This document shows positions 932-16,266 of a stretch of DNA of 20,121 bases, one piece after another. Within the stretch, counting starts at the first letter, position 1, and each line of letters opens with the position of its first letter. Source of the stretch: a virus (lineage: Duplodnaviria; Heunggongvirae; Uroviricota; Caudoviricetes). The translations under genes were made by a program, and so were the position numbers. The notes beneath the pieces were generated by a model. The model saw nothing but the letters and a program-made list of their open reading frames with translations, did no database searches and was not told where the DNA came from. Location of the stretch: the IMG/VR virus record IMGVR_UViG_2778261674_000018, positions 1-20,121 of that record, one strand, 5' to 3'.

Positions 932-1504
932 ATGTTTTGCGAAGAAAAAGTAGCTCAAATGGCTGCATACCTACTTCTTAAGCGAGGTGGGCGCATGGCA
1001 TATCTGAAATTGATGAAGCTGCTCTATCTGTCTAACCGCAAGTCGATTTTGAAGCATGGCAGGATGATCGGCGAAGATAGCCTTTACTCTATGAAATTTG
1101 GTCCGGTCATGTCGAATACGCTGAACTTGATTCGTGGTAAGGCTGAAGGCATTGGTGACTACTGGTACAACTTGATAGAGACGAACGGGCATGATGTGTT
1201 GTTGCGTTCAGATCCGAGGGAAATGGATGCAGACGAGGTCTTTGATGAGTTGAGCCGTGCAGATATCCGGATTTTAGATGAAATCTATTCTCTGTATGGG
1301 CATATGAACCGATTTGATCTCGCAAACATGACGCATTTAGAAAGCGTTTGTCCAGAGTGGCACAATCCTGGCAATTCTCGTAAGCCTATAGACCTGAAAG
1401 AAATGCTGATCAGTGAGGGTAAAAGCGAGGATGAGGCTAATCGTATAATTGGCAAAATGGAAGAATCTCAGAAACTTAAGGAATTTTCTTTGCAATTATC
1501 ATGA
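932..1504 (+). CDS. Panacea/DUF4065-like (SocA/GepA-type) putative antitoxin
   Basis: 190 aa. The N-terminus (AQMAAYLL...YLKLMKLLYL...KFGPVMSN) matches my recollection of the DUF4065 pattern (KLxKLLYxx ... GPV). GAGG sits 8 nt upstream of the ATG. The stop overlaps the next start (ATGA at 1501-1504). AT-rich relative to the phage backbone. Confidence 0.55.
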   Translation: MFCEEKVAQMAAYLLLKRGGRMAYLKLMKLLYLSNRKSILKHGRMIGEDSLYSMKFGPVMSNTLNLIRGKAEGIGDYWYNLIETNGHDVLLRSDPREMDADEVFDELSRADIRILDEIYSLYGHMNRFDLANMTHLESVCPEWHNPGNSRKPIDLKEMLISEGKSEDEANRIIGKMEESQKLKEFSLQLS

Positions 1505-1920
1505 CGGATTATCAGCCATACAGGAAAGGAACTGTGCTTGCCCCAACTGGGCCATGCAATCATCTTCATGTGATTTGTAATGATCCTGTTTATTACCCCG
1601 TTAACGATTGTTATTGTGTTTTAGTTGTTAATATTTCTAGTATCAAGGATGGTGTCCCCCACGATCCGTCTTGCGTCTTGAATTCTGGTGATCATCGCTT
1701 TATCAAGCATCCAAGTTATGTTGTTTACGCTGAAGCTATAATTTGGCGAGTGGATAACATGGTTAGAAAGCAGCGATCGGGTGAGATTTCTGTTCATGAT
1801 GATATGCCAGAAGCTACATTCAATAGAATTCTGGACGGTTTTGATATATCTGATGAAGTTACGCCAAAGAACCTTAAATTTAAAAATAAATATTGCGTAT
1901 CATCTATTGATGATGAGTAA
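1501..1920 (+). CDS. Unknown 139-aa protein, translationally coupled to the Panacea-like gene; putative toxin/effector partner
   Basis: ATGA start/stop overlap with the upstream gene. Very AT-rich. Cys/His-containing N-terminus (PTGPCNHLHVICND); I do not recognise a family. Confidence 0.5.
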   Translation: MTDYQPYRKGTVLAPTGPCNHLHVICNDPVYYPVNDCYCVLVVNISSIKDGVPHDPSCVLNSGDHRFIKHPSYVVYAEAIIWRVDNMVRKQRSGEISVHDDMPEATFNRILDGFDISDEVTPKNLKFKNKYCVSSIDDE

Positions 1921-5569: not shown

Positions 5570-5640
5570 AAAACAAATGTAGGATATCCAACATGTGAGT
5601 GTCAAGAGTTTATGTTGGTTATCCTACATAAAAAGATAGG
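5570..5640 (-). promoter_or_regulatory. Leftward early promoter (PL-like) with two operator palindromes (OL)
   Basis: On the - strand: TTGACA, 18-nt spacer, TACATT. Near-palindromes ATGTAGGATATCCAACAT and ATGTTGGTTATCCTACAT; the one between -35 and -10 covers the -10 element. A near-identical block occurs at OR. Confidence 0.6.
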
Positions 5641-5691: not shown

Positions 5692-6345
5692 TCAAAAATC
5701 CATTATTACTTGTTTGACAAGACCAACTATTCTGCAGTTCTCACCGCATTCAATAGTTTTATAGTTAGGATTTAGTGGGACGAGATACCTGTTCGGCCAG
5801 TCCTCAACAAATTTTTTGAGTGTCGCTTCTTGCCCACCATTGATATGGGCAACAACGATTTTTCCGTTAATACACTCTGTATCAATAATATCTGGCTCTA
5901 CGATAACGATAGAACCTTCTGGTATCGATGGTGAGCCGAGGGGATTGGTCATTGAATCACCACGGACCCGTAGTGCAAATGCCATTTCTGATACAAGGGC
6001 GGTAGTATAAACCCACTCTTCAGCATCTTCTTTCCTGACACCAGGCTCCGTCATTGTCCATGAACCCGCCTGAACCCACGAGATGAGGGGGACTTTTTTA
6101 ACTGCGAATATTTCAGGTTTTAGATTTATCTTTGGTTCAGGCGAGCCTTTTCCGCTAACAAGCCACAGAGGATCGCATTTAAGTGCGTTGGCTAGGGCTT
6201 GAAGGTTGGCTCCATTTGGTTGGTAGTCGTCCTTTTCCCATCCAGTAACCGTGACACGGTTCACACCAGTCAAATCAGCCAGTGCTTGTTGTGTCAGGTT
6301 CAGTTCTTTTCGCCTTTGGCGAATACGATCACTCATGTTCATCAT
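5692..6345 (-). CDS. cI: CI-like prophage repressor (HTH plus S24/LexA-type autopeptidase domain)
   Basis: N-terminal HTH (LTQQALADLTGVNRVTVTGWE), Ala-Gly cleavage site (VQAGSW), catalytic Ser in GDSM and a downstream Lys (LKKF). Sits between two operator clusters. The exact start among the MMNM codons is uncertain. Confidence 0.8.
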   Translation of the reverse strand: MMNMSDRIRQRRKELNLTQQALADLTGVNRVTVTGWEKDDYQPNGANLQALANALKCDPLWLVSGKGSPEPKINLKPEIFAVKKVPLISWVQAGSWTMTEPGVRKEDAEEWVYTTALVSEMAFALRVRGDSMTNPLGSPSIPEGSIVIVEPDIIDTECINGKIVVAHINGGQEATLKKFVEDWPNRYLVPLNPNYKTIECGENCRIVGLVKQVIMDF

Positions 6346-6665: not shown

Positions 6666-7250
6666 GTGGGTAAAGAACCTGAATGGAAAGTTGATAAACA
6701 ACCAGCATGGCTGGTGGCAGCAATACGAAGAACGATTGCTGATTTACCTCATGGCTATGAGGAAGCAGCAGAAATTCTTGGTTTGTATAAATCTGATGAT
6801 ATCACCCCAGCAAAAGATCAATTGCATAACAGACTACGTAGCGGTGGGGATCAAATTTTTCCACTTGAGTGGGCCATGGTTTTACAGGATGCCAGTGGTA
6901 CCAGGCATGTAACGGATGCAATAGCCCGTCGTAGTAATGGGGTGTTTGTGCCGCTGGTGGTCATTGATGACATTGACAATGGTGACATTAATCAGCGGCT
7001 GATGGAGTCAATAGAATGGATTGGCAAGCATTCCCAGTACTTACGCAAGGCAACTGCTGATGGAGTTATTGACCAAGCTGAGCGTGAGCAAATCGAAGAG
7101 AACAGCTACCAAGTAATGGCGAAGTGGCAGGAGCATTTAACACTGTTATTTCGTGTTTTTTGTGCGCCGGAAAAGAGTAACGCCCGCGAGTGTGCAGCTC
7201 CGGGCGTCGTGGCGTCGATTGCTTCTGTCTGTGGAGAAACTAACGCATGA
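6666..7250 (+). CDS. CII-like / YdaT-like early regulatory protein
   Basis: Position directly after cro, as for lambdoid cII analogues. The family assignment is from memory of YdaT/CII-type proteins and is weak. Confidence 0.4.
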   Translation: MGKEPEWKVDKQPAWLVAAIRRTIADLPHGYEEAAEILGLYKSDDITPAKDQLHNRLRSGGDQIFPLEWAMVLQDASGTRHVTDAIARRSNGVFVPLVVIDDIDNGDINQRLMESIEWIGKHSQYLRKATADGVIDQAEREQIEENSYQVMAKWQEHLTLLFRVFCAPEKSNARECAAPGVVASIASVCGETNA

Positions 7251-7395
7251 ACAGTTTAACGGCAAATAACCGTTTGTCGCAACAGCTGGTGGTCAGTGTC
7301 ACTGAACACCTGTTGTTACGGCATGAATGCAGATTACCAAATCACCTGGCTGTAAGTAACCACAGAGAACTTTACCTGACTGTGGGGGGCGAGTT

Positions 7396-7575
7396 GTGCA
7401 GGAACTTAACCGCTGGTTTCGTGACGGAAGAGGGCTTTATGTCCATGTTATTCGTTGGGAGCCAGAAACACAGCGCGTTATCTATCTTCGCAAAGACTAC
7501 CCGCATGAGTGCTTTAGTCCTTTGTGGAAATTCAGGCGTGATTTTGTTGAGTGTGAAGGACCACCAGCACATTGA
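7396..7575 (+). CDS. Small 59-aa hypothetical protein (GTG start)
   Basis: Hand-translated: VQELNRWFRDGRGLYVHVIRWEPETQRVIYLRKDYPHECFSPLWKFRRDFVECEGPPAH, a protein-like composition. A G-rich RBS lies 6 nt upstream. It lies out of frame inside the implausible N-terminal extension of track ORF 7247..8395. Confidence 0.35.
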   Translation: MQELNRWFRDGRGLYVHVIRWEPETQRVIYLRKDYPHECFSPLWKFRRDFVECEGPPAH

Positions 7576-7654
7576 TTCTGCCATTCCGGGACGTTACACT
7601 GTTCAGGCACCTTATAAAGCGGGTGCCGGGATTGGCGTCCTGGAGAAGGCTACC

Positions 7655-7690
7655 GCGTACAACCGCGTAGATGCGGTTTTTTTGTACGCA
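7655..7690 (+). terminator. Rho-independent terminator-like structure in the early-right operon (tR-like)
   Basis: ccgc-gtagat-gcgg followed by TTTTTTT, nested inside an outer inverted repeat gcgtacaa / ttgtacgc. Confidence 0.4.
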
Positions 7691-7849
7691 TTATTTTGTC
7701 ACGCCCAAATTATGGTGGGGCGTACAGGGGCATCGCAAGATGCGCCGGTAAGGGTAGCCGCCGGTAACGCCAACTCTGTACGTCTCACCACCTCTATGAT
7801 TGGCGTCTTATGTGGTGAGTTTTTTAAGCTTGCTACCGAGGCTGCCATT

Positions 7850-8395
7850 ATGGCTACGATCCCAACCTTTGTTCACCCTGAAATCACGATCATCAATGGT
7901 CGTGCTGTCACTACATCTCTTGCAGTTGCTAACTACTTTACTAAACGGCACGAGCGGGTTTTAGATAGAATTCGAAACCTTGAATGCTCCGCTGAATTTG
8001 CTGAACACAATTTTGTGTTAAGTGGTTATACCGACGCTTCAGGCCGCAAACTACCTTGCTATCAAATAACCCGCGATGGCTTTGCGTTTCTTGCTATGGG
8101 TTTCACGGGTAAACGTGCTGCCCAGTTCAAAGAGGCATACATCAATGCCTTTAACCAGATGGAGAAACAGCTTTCAAAGCCCGCTGTACCGAGCGACGTT
8201 GCACATAACGCCAGCGTTCTCTATTCCTACATTTCATCAATTCATCAGGTCTGGTTGCAGCAGCTTTATCCCATGCTGGAAAAAGCTGAATCACCTCTGG
8301 CTGTAAGTCTGTATGACCGAATTAACGATGCGGCATTTCTTGCCCGTCTTATTCATTCGTCTCTGAACTCTTCAGAGGTAAGGGGGCGCAAATGA
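7850..8395 (+). CDS. Rha-family phage regulatory protein
   Basis: MATIPTFVHPEITIINGRAVTTSLAVANYFTKRHERVLDRIRNL...YQITRDGFAFLAMGFTGKRAAQFKEAYINAF matches the Phage_pRha domain pattern. GAGG upstream of this internal ATG. The 7247 start of the track ORF is rejected. Confidence 0.7.
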   Translation: MATIPTFVHPEITIINGRAVTTSLAVANYFTKRHERVLDRIRNLECSAEFAEHNFVLSGYTDASGRKLPCYQITRDGFAFLAMGFTGKRAAQFKEAYINAFNQMEKQLSKPAVPSDVAHNASVLYSYISSIHQVWLQQLYPMLEKAESPLAVSLYDRINDAAFLARLIHSSLNSSEVRGRK

Positions 8396-9922: not shown

Positions 9923-10576
9923 ATGAGTAATAAATATTGCCAGGCGCTGGCGGAACTGCGGAACAAACCAGCCCATGAACTGAAGGAAGTGGGCGATCAG
10001 TGGCGCACGCCGGACAACATTTTCTGGGGAATTAACACCCTGTTTGGCCCGTTTGTTCTGGATCTGTTCACTGACGGTGATAACGCCAAATGTGCTGCGT
10101 ATTACACGGCGGAAGACAACGCGCTGGCGCATGACTGGTCAGAACGCCTTGCGGAGCTTAAAGGTGCTGCCTTTGGTAATCCCCCATACAGCCGCGCCAG
10201 TCAGCATGAGGGGCAATACATCACCGGCATGCGTTACATCATGAAGCATGCCAGTGCCATGCGTGATAAAGGCGGGCGCTATGTTTTCCTGATCAAAGCT
10301 GCCACCAGCGAAGTGTGGTGGCCGGAAGATGCGGACCATATTGCTTTTATTCGCGGGCGTATTGGTTTTGAACTGCCTGCCTGGTTTATCCCGAAGGATG
10401 AGAAGCAGGTGCCGACAGGCGCTTTCTTCGCTGGTGCTATTGCTGTTTTCGACAAGACCTGGAAGGGACCGGCAATCAGCTACATCGGGCGCGATGAACT
10501 TGAGGCATGTGGTGAGGCGTTTCTGGCGCAGGTTCGCCAGCAGGCGGAAAAACTGGTCAGGGAGATGGCGGCATGA
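9923..10576 (+). CDS. Phage Dam-like N6-adenine DNA methyltransferase
   Basis: Catalytic NPPY motif (FGNPPYS) and overall resemblance to the phage N6-adenine-methyltransferase family. Start chosen at MSNKYCQ (RBS GGGGG); the track begins 11 codons earlier. Confidence 0.65.
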   Translation: MSNKYCQALAELRNKPAHELKEVGDQWRTPDNIFWGINTLFGPFVLDLFTDGDNAKCAAYYTAEDNALAHDWSERLAELKGAAFGNPPYSRASQHEGQYITGMRYIMKHASAMRDKGGRYVFLIKAATSEVWWPEDADHIAFIRGRIGFELPAWFIPKDEKQVPTGAFFAGAIAVFDKTWKGPAISYIGRDELEACGEAFLAQVRQQAEKLVREMAA

Positions 10577-10899
10577 CGACGTTAACTCAATGCCAGCAGC
10601 AGGTGCTGGATATGCTGATTTCTTACCAGCAAGAACGTGGCTTCCCGCCAACCAATCAGGAGGTGGCAACCATGCTGGGATACCGTTCAGTGAATGCAGC
10701 GGTGGAGCATCTTCGCGCACTGGAGAAAAAAGGCGTCATCACGATAAAGCGTGGCGTGGCACGGGGGATAACGCTTCATACCGCGGTGAAGGACGACGAC
10801 AGCGAGGCAGCCGGGATTATCCGCGCACTGCTTGCCGGTGAGGAAAACGCCAGACTGCGTGCAACCCACTGGTTACATGAGAGAGGCCTGAAAGTATGA
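10573..10899 (+). CDS. LexA N-terminal DNA-binding-domain-only protein (no S24 peptidase domain)
   Basis: MTTLTQCQQQVLDMLISYQQERGFPPTNQEVATMLGYRSVNAAVEHLRALEKKGVITIKRGVARGITL aligns closely with E. coli LexA residues 1-70 ([58 protein letters not shown]). Only 108 aa. ATGA coupling to the Dam gene. Confidence 0.6.
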   Translation: MTTLTQCQQQVLDMLISYQQERGFPPTNQEVATMLGYRSVNAAVEHLRALEKKGVITIKRGVARGITLHTAVKDDDSEAAGIIRALLAGEENARLRATHWLHERGLKV

Positions 10900-11285
10900 A
10901 GCTGATCCTGCCTTTCCCGCCCAGCGTGAACACGTACTGGCGACACCCCAACAAAGGGGCATTTGCTGGTAAGAGCCTGATAAGCGCGGCGGGGCGAAAA
11001 TTTCAGAGCGCGGCGTGCGCAGCAATAGTTGAGCAGTTACGTCGTCTGCCGAAACCAACGTCGGCACCTGCTTCAGTGGAGATCGTGTTGTTTCCTCCGG
11101 ATAACCGGATCCGCGATCTGGACAACTATAACAAGGCGCTGTTTGACGCCCTGACCCACGCGGGTGTGTGGGAAGACGACAGTCAGGTGAAAAGAATGCT
11201 GGTGGAGTGGGGACCGGTTATCCCGGAAGGGAAGGTCGAGATCACTATCAGTAAGTACGAGAAAACGGCGGGTGCAGCCGCCTGA
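10896..11285 (+). CDS. rusA: RusA Holliday-junction resolvase
   Basis: LPFPPSVNTYWRH...RDLDNYNKALFDALTHAGVWEDDSQV matches the RusA signature (PWPPSNNRYY...RDLDN...DALT). 129 aa. ATGA coupling upstream. Confidence 0.85.
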   Translation: MKLILPFPPSVNTYWRHPNKGAFAGKSLISAAGRKFQSAACAAIVEQLRRLPKPTSAPASVEIVLFPPDNRIRDLDNYNKALFDALTHAGVWEDDSQVKRMLVEWGPVIPEGKVEITISKYEKTAGAAA

Positions 11286-13512: not shown

Positions 13513-13537
13513 AAGCCCGATTACTCGGGCTTTTGTT
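13513..13537 (+). terminator. Rho-independent terminator after Q
   Basis: aagcccga-ttac-tcgggctttt; overlaps the stop codon of the convergent gene on the - strand. Confidence 0.55.
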
Positions 13538-14540
13538 CCACATCTCGAACATAGAGAATTACTGCTGACTTAATGTCACCATCGACGTGTTTTGCGTTAA
13601 TGCTCAAATGTACAGGCTTTCTTTCCCACTCAGCTCGCTGCAATGCTTCTTTGTTTCCGGATTCATCAAGGAAAACATCCTGAACTACGCAGGTTAGACG
13701 TTGGTCGGTATCTACGCGTCGGACCTTAACTTTGAAACTCTCTGGGTCAGTATTATTGACTTCTTCAATTCGGTAAATACCATCAATCCTCATTTCTGAT
13801 GAACGTCTACGAGCATTCGTAACCAACTCTTTCGCCATTTCAGAATCAATAGTAACGCCATCAATTTGAGCGTTATCTGAACGCACAAAGGATTTGACCA
13901 TTTGGGTTTTAGCGTCATACGACATACGGTCCATGTTATCGAGAAGTGGTTTTTCCGCAATCATTTCTGAAATAACCCGCAGGCGTTTAGTTTCTTGCTC
14001 ACTCATGATCTGCATAGTCCGGAGATGTTCTTTCTCTCCATCCTTAGCAATTTCTGCAAGGCGAATATCTTTACGGTTGTCCAAGAACCGTTTAAATACT
14101 GTTACTCCGCCCCAGATGACTGCTGCGCCGAGAACAGTAAACATGATCTCAGTTGCGTTCATTTTACCAACAAGTTCCTGTGTGAGTTTGGTTAAAAAGC
14201 CATCAATGTTGATTTCTACTATTGAAGAACCCTGTTCTACCGTAACTTCTATTTCTAGGGCATCAAGTTCTTCTTTGGTCAGTTTGCGGACGTCAGGGAC
14301 ACCGTACTTGGCAAGGGCATATGATTTGTTGATTTGAGCTTGCATTTCAACAAATCCCTTCATAACTGAAGGTGTTAGCGATCTGTTGAATTTTTCACCG
14401 GTTAATCTGATGGTAAGGTTTGGCCATCCGTTGAAACTTAAACTGTCAGGTAAACCATAACCATCAAGATAGCTTTCAAGCAAATCGAAGGCTTGCTGCT
14501 CAGATTCAATGTCTACATGAATCTCATCAAACTTATCCAA
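13521..14540 (-). CDS. Membrane-anchored protein of unknown function (339 aa, one central TM helix)
   Basis: Long ORF, AT-rich, convergent to Q. Hydrophobic segment IMFTVLGAAVIWGGVTVF flanked by charged residues (KMNATE ... KRFLDNRKD). No family recognised. Confidence 0.6.
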   Translation of the reverse strand: MDKFDEIHVDIESEQQAFDLLESYLDGYGLPDSLSFNGWPNLTIRLTGEKFNRSLTPSVMKGFVEMQAQINKSYALAKYGVPDVRKLTKEELDALEIEVTVEQGSSIVEINIDGFLTKLTQELVGKMNATEIMFTVLGAAVIWGGVTVFKRFLDNRKDIRLAEIAKDGEKEHLRTMQIMSEQETKRLRVISEMIAEKPLLDNMDRMSYDAKTQMVKSFVRSDNAQIDGVTIDSEMAKELVTNARRRSSEMRIDGIYRIEEVNNTDPESFKVKVRRVDTDQRLTCVVQDVFLDESGNKEALQRAEWERKPVHLSINAKHVDGDIKSAVILYVRDVEQKPE

Positions 14541-14712: not shown

Positions 14713-14740
14713 AAACCCGCCGCTGAGCGGTTTTTTTGTA
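14713..14740 (+). terminator. Candidate tR'-like terminator preceding the late genes
   Basis: Short GC stem (ccgc-tga-gcgg) followed by TTTTTTT. An upstream inverted repeat tgtgtggc (14614) / gccacaca (14701) could fold the intervening segment. Confidence 0.4.
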
Positions 14741-15213: not shown

Positions 15214-16266
15214 ATGAAAAATACTGTAAAAATAAACAGTGTTGATTTAATCAACGCTGATTGCCTGCATTTTATTCAGTCCCTGCCTGATGATTCCATT
15301 GACCTGATTGTTACCGATCCGCCGTACTTCAAGGTGAAACCCAACGGTTGGGACAATCAGTGGAAAGGGGACGAAGATTACCTTAAGTGGCTGGACCACT
15401 GTCTGGCCCAGTTCTGGCGGGTGTTAAAACCTGCCGGAAGCCTTTACCTGTTCTGTGGGCATCGCCTGGCATCTGATATTGAGATCATGATGCGTGAACG
15501 TTTCAACGTGCTTAACCATATCATCTGGGCGAAGCCGTCCGGACGTTGGAATGGGTGTAATAAAGAAAGTCTGCGCGCATATTTTCCTGCCACAGAGCGC
15601 GTTCTGTTTGCTGAACATTACCAGGGGCCATATCGTGGCAAAAGTGACGGCTATGCGGCAAAAGAAAGGGAACTCAAACAGCACATAATGGCACCGCTGA
15701 TATCGTATTTCAGGGATGCTCGTGCCGAACTGGGTATAACGGCAAAACAAATTGCCGAAGCCACAGGTAAGAAAAATATGGTTTCCCACTGGTTTGGTGC
15801 CAGTCAGTGGCAGTTGCCGAATGAGGCTGACTATCGGAAGTTACAGGCACTGTTTTCCCGTATAGCGGCAGAGAAGTTTCAGGAACAACAACTGGAACAA
15901 CCACACCACCAGCTGGTGGCATCTTATGATTCACTAAATCGCAAATATTCTGAATTGCTGGATGAGTTTAAATCTCTCCGGCGCTATTTCTCCGTATCAG
16001 TCTCCGTGCCTTATACCGATGTCTGGATGCATAAACCCGTTCAGTTCTACCCGGGTAAACATCCGTGTGAGAAACCTGCGGATATGCTCCGGCAAATAAT
16101 CAATGCCAGTAGTCGACCTGGTGATCTGGTTGCTGATTTTTTTATGGGATCCGGTTCCACAATAAAAGCAGCAATGGCGCTGGGGCGTCGGGCCTTAGGT
16201 GTTGAGCTTGAGTCAGAGCGGTTTAACCAGACAGTGAAAGAGATAAACGAGCTGGTGGGGAAATAA
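15214..16266 (+). CDS. DNA methyltransferase, beta-class amino-MTase (N6-A or N4-C)
   Basis: Motif IV DPPY (VTDPPYF) lies N-terminal to motif I FxGxGS (FFMGSGST), the circular permutation typical of beta-class MTases. Confidence 0.75.
   Translation: MKNTVKINSVDLINADCLHFIQSLPDDSIDLIVTDPPYFKVKPNGWDNQWKGDEDYLKWLDHCLAQFWRVLKPAGSLYLFCGHRLASDIEIMMRERFNVLNHIIWAKPSGRWNGCNKESLRAYFPATERVLFAEHYQGPYRGKSDGYAAKERELKQHIMAPLISYFRDARAELGITAKQIAEATGKKNMVSHWFGASQWQLPNEADYRKLQALFSRIAAEKFQEQQLEQPHHQLVASYDSLNRKYSELLDEFKSLRRYFSVSVSVPYTDVWMHKPVQFYPGKHPCEKPADMLRQIINASSRPGDLVADFFMGSGSTIKAAMALGRRALGVELESERFNQTVKEINELVGK

Follow-up and report, generated by a model that had tools for sequence, protein, structure and literature searches.

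The window analysed here is the whole 20,121-nucleotide stretch of the IMG/VR virus record IMGVR_UViG_2778261674_000018. It belongs to an Escherichia coli prophage that is a lambdoid mosaic, and a complete genome covers at best 79% of the window, at about 97% identity. Its rightward early operon carries a gene for a 108-amino-acid (aa) protein, in which a LexA-like winged helix-turn-helix (wHTH) domain is followed by a conserved, predicted helical tail in place of the S24 autopeptidase domain. The best explanation of these sequence features is a small sequence-specific DNA-binding regulator derived from the N-terminal domain of a gammaproteobacterial LexA, and binding of SOS boxes by this protein is plausible. 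The gene is common, already catalogued and annotated, and not new; what is new is limited to an enterobacterial, independently evolved case of a truncated phage homologue of LexA. The gene and its parts are as follows.

10573-10899, plus strand: LexA-type gene of the SfV orf42 / mEp460 gp46 / PHROG 362 family (open frame, PF01726, PHROG 362)
10573-10779, plus strand: residues 1-69, LexA-like wHTH (AlphaFold2 model, Foldseek match to 3jso_B)
10795-10881, plus strand: residues 75-103, conserved amphipathic two-helix tail in place of the S24 domain (secondary structure of the AlphaFold2 model)

The gene and its place in the early operon

The open frame 10573-10899 (plus strand) specifies the 108-aa product and is preceded by the Shine-Dalgarno sequence GGAG about 8 nt upstream of the start. 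The gene is linked to both neighbours by ATGA overlaps, its ATG overlapping the TGA of the upstream Dam methyltransferase gene and its own TGA the ATG of rusA at 10896. A first-pass annotation of this DNA had assigned the gene to the phage early operon, and it indeed lies in the PR early (nin) operon, transcribed rightward, between the replication genes and Q. Neither a sigma-70-like promoter nor a plus-strand terminator was found in the window between the replication genes and the LexA-type gene; expression is therefore most likely delayed-early and from PR only.

A LexA-type DNA-binding domain without the autopeptidase

Residues 1-65 matched the full Pfam profile LexA_DNA_bind (PF01726) with an E-value of 2.6e-19 and 69.2 bits (cut-off 23.7), and neither Peptidase_S24 nor any other Pfam domain was detected above cut-off in the 108-aa protein. 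A phmmer search against the PDB sequences returned the N-terminal domain of E. coli LexA (1lea, E=7.8e-16) and also full-length LexA (3jso). The protein was modelled with AlphaFold2 using 43 family sequences as input (predicted local distance difference test score 83). The predicted wHTH consists of helices 6-22 and 28-35, a recognition helix 40-52 and a beta-hairpin wing 56-68, and its best Foldseek match was operator-bound LexA 3jso_B with a root-mean-square deviation of 1.0 A over 68 residues and 50% identity. These data bear out the earlier proposal that the first 70 residues or so correspond to the domain with which LexA binds DNA, and that the S24 autopeptidase/dimerisation domain is missing, the protein ending at residue 108. 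The determinants of RecA*-stimulated cleavage are located in the C-terminal domain of LexA (PMC11787620). As this domain is missing, the phage protein should be insensitive to RecA*, as had also been proposed.

The score against the lexA equivalog model of NCBIfam (TIGR00498) was 67.5 bits, below the cut-off of 110.95, and the alignment was confined to profile positions 1-91 of 203. Judged by its sequence, the protein cannot be classed as an orthologue of LexA. It lacks three features that define the latter: the S24 domain, a conserved Ala-Gly site and a TIGR00498 score above cut-off. Close alleles displayed a single amino-acid change in the wHTH (Q20K), 4-5 changes in the linker and tail, and 6-8 synonymous differences. 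The one replacement in the wHTH against 6-8 synonymous differences indicates that the DNA-binding part is under purifying selection. A PADLOC scan for defence systems gave only a marginal match to the wHTH.

Recognition helix and DNA contacts

Helix 3 of LexA contacts DNA through S39, N41, A42, E44 and E45 (PMC3091678, a secondary source). The corresponding residues of the window protein are S, N, A, V and E, so that four of the five are retained. We surveyed the recognition helix in 131 family members among the fetched proteins and in the family alignment of 43 sequences (A4). S39 and N41 were kept in the 131 members and invariant in the alignment, and position 45 was Glu or Asp in 114 of the 131. 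True LexAs in the same protein set, full-length or fragmentary, mostly have EE, ED or EQ at positions 44-45. The recognition helices read SVNAAVEH in E. coli, SHNAAAEH in Salmonella, SPNAATDM in Cronobacter and SSNAVLLH in Klebsiella.

Linker and helical tail

In the AlphaFold2 model the tail forms two helices, 75-88 and 93-103, joined to the wHTH by a poorly predicted linker (69-74). The family alignment gave the tail consensus EAxxLLRALLAGEExARxRAIxxLHxRG. Residues A97 and L101 were invariant and A93 nearly so (at least 90%), and the hydrophobic pattern was preserved across genera down to about 40% identity. A Foldseek search with the model yielded no structural match for the tail in the PDB. 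Because LexA dimerises via the C-terminal domain that is missing here, the predicted helical hairpin is likely to be a replacement dimerisation module.

The HMMER alignment to LexA reached into the region of the cleavage site (…IIRALLAGE versus …LVGRVAAGE), which fits descent from a truncated lexA. The dipeptide A88-G89 is aligned there with the scissile bond A84-G85 of LexA. A role of A88-G89 as a trans-cleavage substrate was considered and rejected, as the dipeptide varies in the family: its counterparts in relatives are AN, ER, DD and AE (LLANEE, VERESD, IDDQPG). Owing to this lack of conservation, the Ala-Gly is best regarded as a relic and not as a cleavage site.

SOS-type boxes in the window and in relatives

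Boxes were scored with a matrix of 28 E. coli SOS boxes, and the scores are approximate; the median of the training set was 20.4 bits. Three exact CTGT-N8-ACAG sites were present in the window.

15222-15241, no strand assigned: strong canonical SOS (LexA) box TACTGTAAAAATAAACAGTG, a putative operator of host LexA, of the phage protein or of both (exact CTGT-N8-ACAG, 22.8 bits)
7350-7365, no strand assigned: candidate CTGT-N8-ACAG box with non-canonical spacer, 5' of the isrK/C4-RNA/ash-rha antirepressor-like module (6.4 bits)
2935-2950, no strand assigned: CTGT-N8-ACAG box inside a 3'-5' exonuclease gene, probably due to chance (4.3 bits)

The three observed sites compare with 0.23-0.27 expected, and one of 100 shuffles reached three. 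When spacers of 0-20 bp between CTGT and ACAG were examined in the window, only n=8 was enriched; n=0-7 and n=9-13 did not occur. Two of the three boxes have GC-containing spacers and score poorly for host LexA.

The box at 15222 lies at codons 3-9 of a late-region N6/N4 methyltransferase gene (15214-16266). It is kept among phages of E. coli, Salmonella, Citrobacter and Klebsiella (L012, 9310-9329; L018/L019; mEp460, L020, 41021-41040), and the 110 bp upstream are highly conserved as well, with a mean column identity of 91%. The 7350 box is kept in the loci L001 and L002 and in mEp460. The latter, a functional phage of the same architecture, harbors five exact boxes, four of them above 21 bits: two before dinI, one in the cI-type repressor gene, one 5' of isrK/rha and one at the methyltransferase. 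The SOS-type boxes in the window and in mEp460 show that this phage group is tied into SOS control. Furthermore, the SOS-boxed late methyltransferase is present in 27 E. coli phage records, and the LexA-type gene accompanies it in every one of them.

A putative autoregulatory CTGT-N8-ACAG at the stop/Shine-Dalgarno/start junction of Salmonella homologues (L009-L011, L015-L017) was discarded as probably due to chance (1.7 bits); all occurrences represent one homologous junction, and L014 has a 1-nt deletion there. Near-perfect SOS boxes of 25-27 bits were also noticed inside cI-type repressor genes encoding HTH and S24 domains (L002, 7318-7337; L006, 2190-2209; mEp460, 31970-31989). In L002 and L006 they lie at about codon 70-76 and are kept between E. 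coli and Cronobacter despite differing flanks; the repressor allele of the window itself has no such box. These internal boxes may mark an SOS-controlled internal or antisense promoter.

Distribution and nomenclature

Of 5426 complete E. coli genomes, 2233 (41%) contain the gene at 95-100% nucleotide identity, and in four of these the identity is 100%. Its DNA is also 100% identical to the gene of RefSeq WP_089527128.1, a "LexA family transcriptional regulator". The protein matched PHROG 362 with residues 1-108 against profile positions 1-106 (E=1.5e-58). Fifty phage records carry the gene, including SfV (orf42, 'unknown'), SfII, mEp460, Ayreon, cdtI and Stx2c phages; identity to the SfV, SfII, mEp460 and Stx2c phage genes is 95-98%. 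Stx2a-converting phages carry a LexA-type gene as well (tblastn). A profile search detected relatives of full length, tail included, in Citrobacter, Salmonella, Cronobacter, Klebsiella, Enterobacter, Kosakonia and Atlantibacter, and a near-identical allele (87%) was found in a Hafnia metagenome genome.

RefSeq names the proteins 'LexA family transcriptional regulator' or 'LexA family protein', and PHROGs lists family 362 as 'transcriptional repressor'. The GenBank records AB285204 (cdtI), KF030445 (1720a-02), LR595868 and MT225100 use 'RecA-mediated autopeptidases', 'SOS-response repressor and protease LexA' or 'LexA repressor'. The protease-type names are evidently wrong, given that the predicted protein has no protease domain. 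A comparison of Shiga toxin (Stx) phages lists the gene only as 'pham 237, pfam01726, 15 phages' (PMC8136144). Our literature search found no functional study of SfV orf42, mEp460 gp46, PHROG 362 or phage proteins with PF01726 only. The practical value of the finding lies in flagging this very common gene and in correcting the 'LexA protease' and 'RecA-mediated autopeptidase' annotations.

Comparison with known regulators

The phage protein shares with LexA of the E. coli host the wHTH fold, about 50% identity over residues 2-69 and, within its recognition helix SVNAAVEHLR, the LexA residues S39, N41, A42 and E45. In contrast to host LexA, it lacks Peptidase_S24 with the Ser119/Lys156 dyad and the dimerisation function as well as the conserved Ala-Gly, Glu44 is replaced, and a 35-residue helical tail takes the place of the C-terminal domain. 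Moreover, its gene belongs to a phage operon and is not autoregulated from an SOS promoter.

The LexA(1-84) cleavage fragment comprises about the same part of LexA as the 108-aa protein. Work by Hurstel and colleagues in 1986-88 and by Kim and Little in 1992 reportedly found that this fragment binds operators specifically but weakly and dimerises on the DNA, and the natural fragment is said, by Neher and colleagues in 2003, to be a short-lived substrate of ClpXP. Unlike the fragment, the phage protein would be a stable, selected gene product with a conserved structured extension. A likeness to NinH of lambda and other small nin proteins is restricted to position and concept. NinH is a Fis-like small DNA-binding protein encoded in the nin region between the replication genes and Q, so that in both cases a small DNA-binding protein resembles a nucleoid or regulatory protein of the host; fold and sequence of NinH are unrelated to the LexA-type protein.

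Of such proteins, gp6 of the Bacillus tectivirus GIL01 is the only one for which we found an experimental characterisation in the literature. Its binding site at -43.5 is the palindrome GaCACAC-GTGTGaC and no LexA box, and gp6 acts as an activator of the late promoter P3 (PMC6182141). Like the present protein, gp6 is encoded by a temperate phage and is essentially a LexA DNA-binding domain, and GIL01 promoters also carry boxes for host LexA. It differs in being essentially the DNA-binding domain alone, whereas the 108-aa protein adds a helical hairpin; in addition, GIL01 has no repressor of its own, while the present phage encodes a cleavable CI-type repressor. A tblastn search of 50,697 phage records at E<=1e-3 returned Enterobacterales phages and two metagenomic records, and no Bacillus tectivirus. 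As no sequence link was detectable at this threshold, the truncation in gp6 is taken to be independent.

Proposed role and alternative explanations

We tentatively propose that the protein is a RecA-proof surrogate of LexA, dimerised through its tail, which acts at SOS-type boxes during lytic growth, at phage-borne boxes first and possibly at host operators. The protein would be made only with PR open, after infection or induction, and host LexA would be cleaved by then. It would dimerise through the helical hairpin, and RecA* would be unable to inactivate it. With S39, N41, A42 and E45 retained, the protein of the E. coli clade is expected to recognise LexA-like CTGT half-sites; the loss of Glu44 would mean one negative charge less beside the DNA and may offset a weaker dimerisation. 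First targets would be the phage-borne boxes at the late methyltransferase (15222) and 5' of the isrK/C4/rha module, and host SOS operators would be further possible targets. Points in favour of the proposal are the homology and fold match to DNA-bound LexA, the retained contact residues, the nearly invariant wHTH and conserved tail, the position inside the early operon, the enrichment of CTGT-N8-ACAG in the window at n=8 only, the strong boxes of mEp460, the shared occurrence with the SOS-boxed methyltransferase, and the place of the Klebsiella homologue behind the SOS-boxed dinI. If SOS-type operators are bound, the induced prophages of many E. coli strains, including Stx2-converting ones, carry an uncleavable version of LexA, and the timing of SOS shut-off, the cross-talk of prophages and possibly toxin output would be affected.

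Several points weigh against this proposal. Position 44 was never Glu in the 131 family members (V, A, T, F, L or N instead), positions 40 and 42-45 vary among the E. coli, Salmonella, Cronobacter, Klebsiella and Kosakonia clades, and in the Klebsiella helix SSNAVLLH both glutamates are gone. The SOS box CTGT-N8-ACAG is common to these host genera, and clade-specific helices would be unexpected if the common function were binding of the canonical box. A dimerisation module unlike that of LexA means that the 8-bp spacing need not hold. The strong boxes are explained equally well by host LexA alone, and the co-occurrence of the boxed methyltransferase with the LexA-type gene can be explained by linkage, the two lying 4.5 kb apart in one lineage. 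No strong box was present in the fetched 9-14 kb of the carrier loci L001, L009-L011 and L014. Finally, GIL01 gp6 sets the precedent of a truncated LexA homologue that has acquired a new site and is now an activator (PMC6182141). The pattern of the recognition helix itself can be read in two ways: the base-reading residues may have been retained and the acidic residue dropped for higher affinity, or specificity may have diversified, as in GIL01 gp6.

The second way of reading the helix leads to a private regulator resembling gp6, a somewhat doubtful alternative in which the LexA-derived wHTH has drifted to a phage palindrome and acts on one phage promoter, for instance a late, antirepressor or methyltransferase promoter, instead of SOS boxes. 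Besides the non-LexA palindrome and the late-promoter activation by gp6 (PMC6182141), the clade-variable positions 40 and 42-45 and the consistent loss of Glu44 argue for it, as they resemble the diversification of immunity specificity. However, inverted-repeat scans for a private operator, near the gene and in the early and late regions, gave only CI operators, ori iterons and SOS-type boxes and thus no candidate site; the genes of the nin operon are densely packed, and no promoter lies near this one; and the family mostly keeps S39, N41, A/S42 and E/D45, a point in favour of a LexA-like half-site. If the protein does have a target of its own, it would add to gp6 a second example, of independent origin, in which a phage has made a private regulator out of the DNA-binding domain of LexA. 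It is improbable that the protein acts outside transcription, as a DNA-binding accessory of the methyltransferase or of RusA, or as a controller protein for the methyltransferase. Such a role would suit the order methyltransferase/LexA-type gene/rusA, which is shared by E. coli, Salmonella and Cronobacter, with start and stop codons that overlap or lie close together. However, the methyltransferases in this position belong to unrelated families, which makes a specific partnership unlikely, and beside the Klebsiella homologues both the methyltransferase and RusA are missing. When gene order is conserved in lambdoid mosaics, the cause is often the position of a module and not interaction. RusA moreover occurs in many phages (phage 82, DLP12) that are not known to have a LexA-type gene, which also speaks against this role.

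A functionless relic of a captured, truncated lexA is by far the least credible explanation. Such an origin would account for the similarity to LexA that runs through the linker to the cleavage-site region (…LLAGE versus …VAAGE) and for the many frameshifted or shortened alleles in cryptic prophages. Yet at least eight genera preserve the length and the distinct tail, down to about 40% identity; close alleles have accumulated synonymous changes with hardly any change in the wHTH; and functional phages (mEp460, SfV, SfII and Stx2c phages) have kept the gene. The proposal of a LexA surrogate could also be extended, although we regard the extension as unlikely: after induction, the protein would re-repress sulA, tisB and umuDC of the host together with LexA-controlled antirepressors and dinI-type genes of co-resident prophages, so that the first-firing phage silences its rivals and tunes the physiology of the dying cell. 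Were this true, a gene carried by 41% of complete E. coli genomes and by Stx2c and Stx2a phages would add a widespread level, so far unrecognised, to SOS control and to the competition among Shiga-toxin phages.

Neighbouring genes

The genes overlapping the LexA-type gene on either side were identified as follows.

9923-10576, plus strand: N6-adenine methyltransferase Dam (PF05869; Pfam E=1.2e-45, RefSeq annotation of the identical stretch)
10896-11285, plus strand: RusA Holliday-junction resolvase (PF05866; Pfam E=6.1e-15)

In E. coli, Cronobacter and Salmonella the order on the PR strand is PerC-like, DNA methyltransferase, LexA-type gene, rusA, KilA-N or Rha, DUF968, and Q or another antiterminator. 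Comparison of the methyltransferase position in the window (9923-10576), in Salmonella (L009-L017) and in Cronobacter (L006-L008) revealed unrelated families, namely PF05869 Dam, PF02086 D12, PF00145 C5 and fusions of several domains (696-1044 aa), one of which has a faint PAPS_reduct match. This variety points to a positional 'slot' and not to a physical partnership. RefSeq phage records carry the upstream Dam as 'phosphoadenosine phosphosulfate reductase'. Apparent Dam-LexA and RusA-LexA fusions (P0025, P0121, P0252, P0253) were rejected as frameshift artefacts, being singleton clusters at overlapping ATGA junctions. Four further proteins of 141-222 aa (P0127, P0134, P0153, P0160) contain two tandem LexA DNA-binding domains without S24 ('single-chain dimers'); P0161 resembles an assembly duplication.

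The Klebsiella homologue, of 130 aa, is found in prophage remnants behind dinI and a small open reading frame (ORF), with methyltransferase and RusA not adjacent, and dinI is preceded by a 27-bit SOS box. About 4.5 kb from this homologue (L003-L005; 1-1542 and 5385-6393), an AAA_15 ATPase is paired with a DUF4435 protein, which we take to be the domain pair of the PARIS defence system.

Other features of the window

Two further loci of the window were annotated as follows.

5692-6345, minus strand: main repressor, HTH_3 and Peptidase_S24, cleavable CI type (Pfam, S24 E=3.7e-25)
7607-7683 and 7708-7795: isrK and C4 RNAs (Rfam)

The main repressor had been described in the first-pass annotation as a cleavable S24-type protein. 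Its domains agree with this description, as do an AG site within VQAGSW, a GDSM serine motif and a downstream lysine. CI-type operators ATGTWGGWTATCCWACAT were found as inverted repeats at 5577, 5612 and 6391.

A 382-aa 'Rha family regulator' ORF (7247-8395, plus strand) is named so in RefSeq relatives. Within its 5' third, Rfam places isrK (60 bits) and C4 antisense RNA (68 bits), whereas the Ash domain begins only at residue 117 and the Rha domain at residue 222. The 5' part of this ORF is probably non-coding and belongs to an immI-like antirepressor module controlled by small RNAs, and the annotated ORF is probably too long. An imperfect palindrome of 49 bp (7275-7323; two 24-nt arms, 79% complementary) lies 3' of a CII-like gene and 5' of the 7350 box and isrK.

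At the prophage end lies the gene of a Panacea-domain protein (932-1504, plus strand; so named by RefSeq at the near-identical locus L002). The ORF of 139 aa that comes next (1501-1920, plus strand) overlaps it, and the pair is likely a toxin-antitoxin system. Between Q and the late promoter/terminator region, which includes a terminator-like site at 14719-14740, a 339-aa ORF (13521-14540, minus strand) runs on the opposite strand. It has no family match and other genes occupy its place in relatives, which identifies it as a moron-like insertion.

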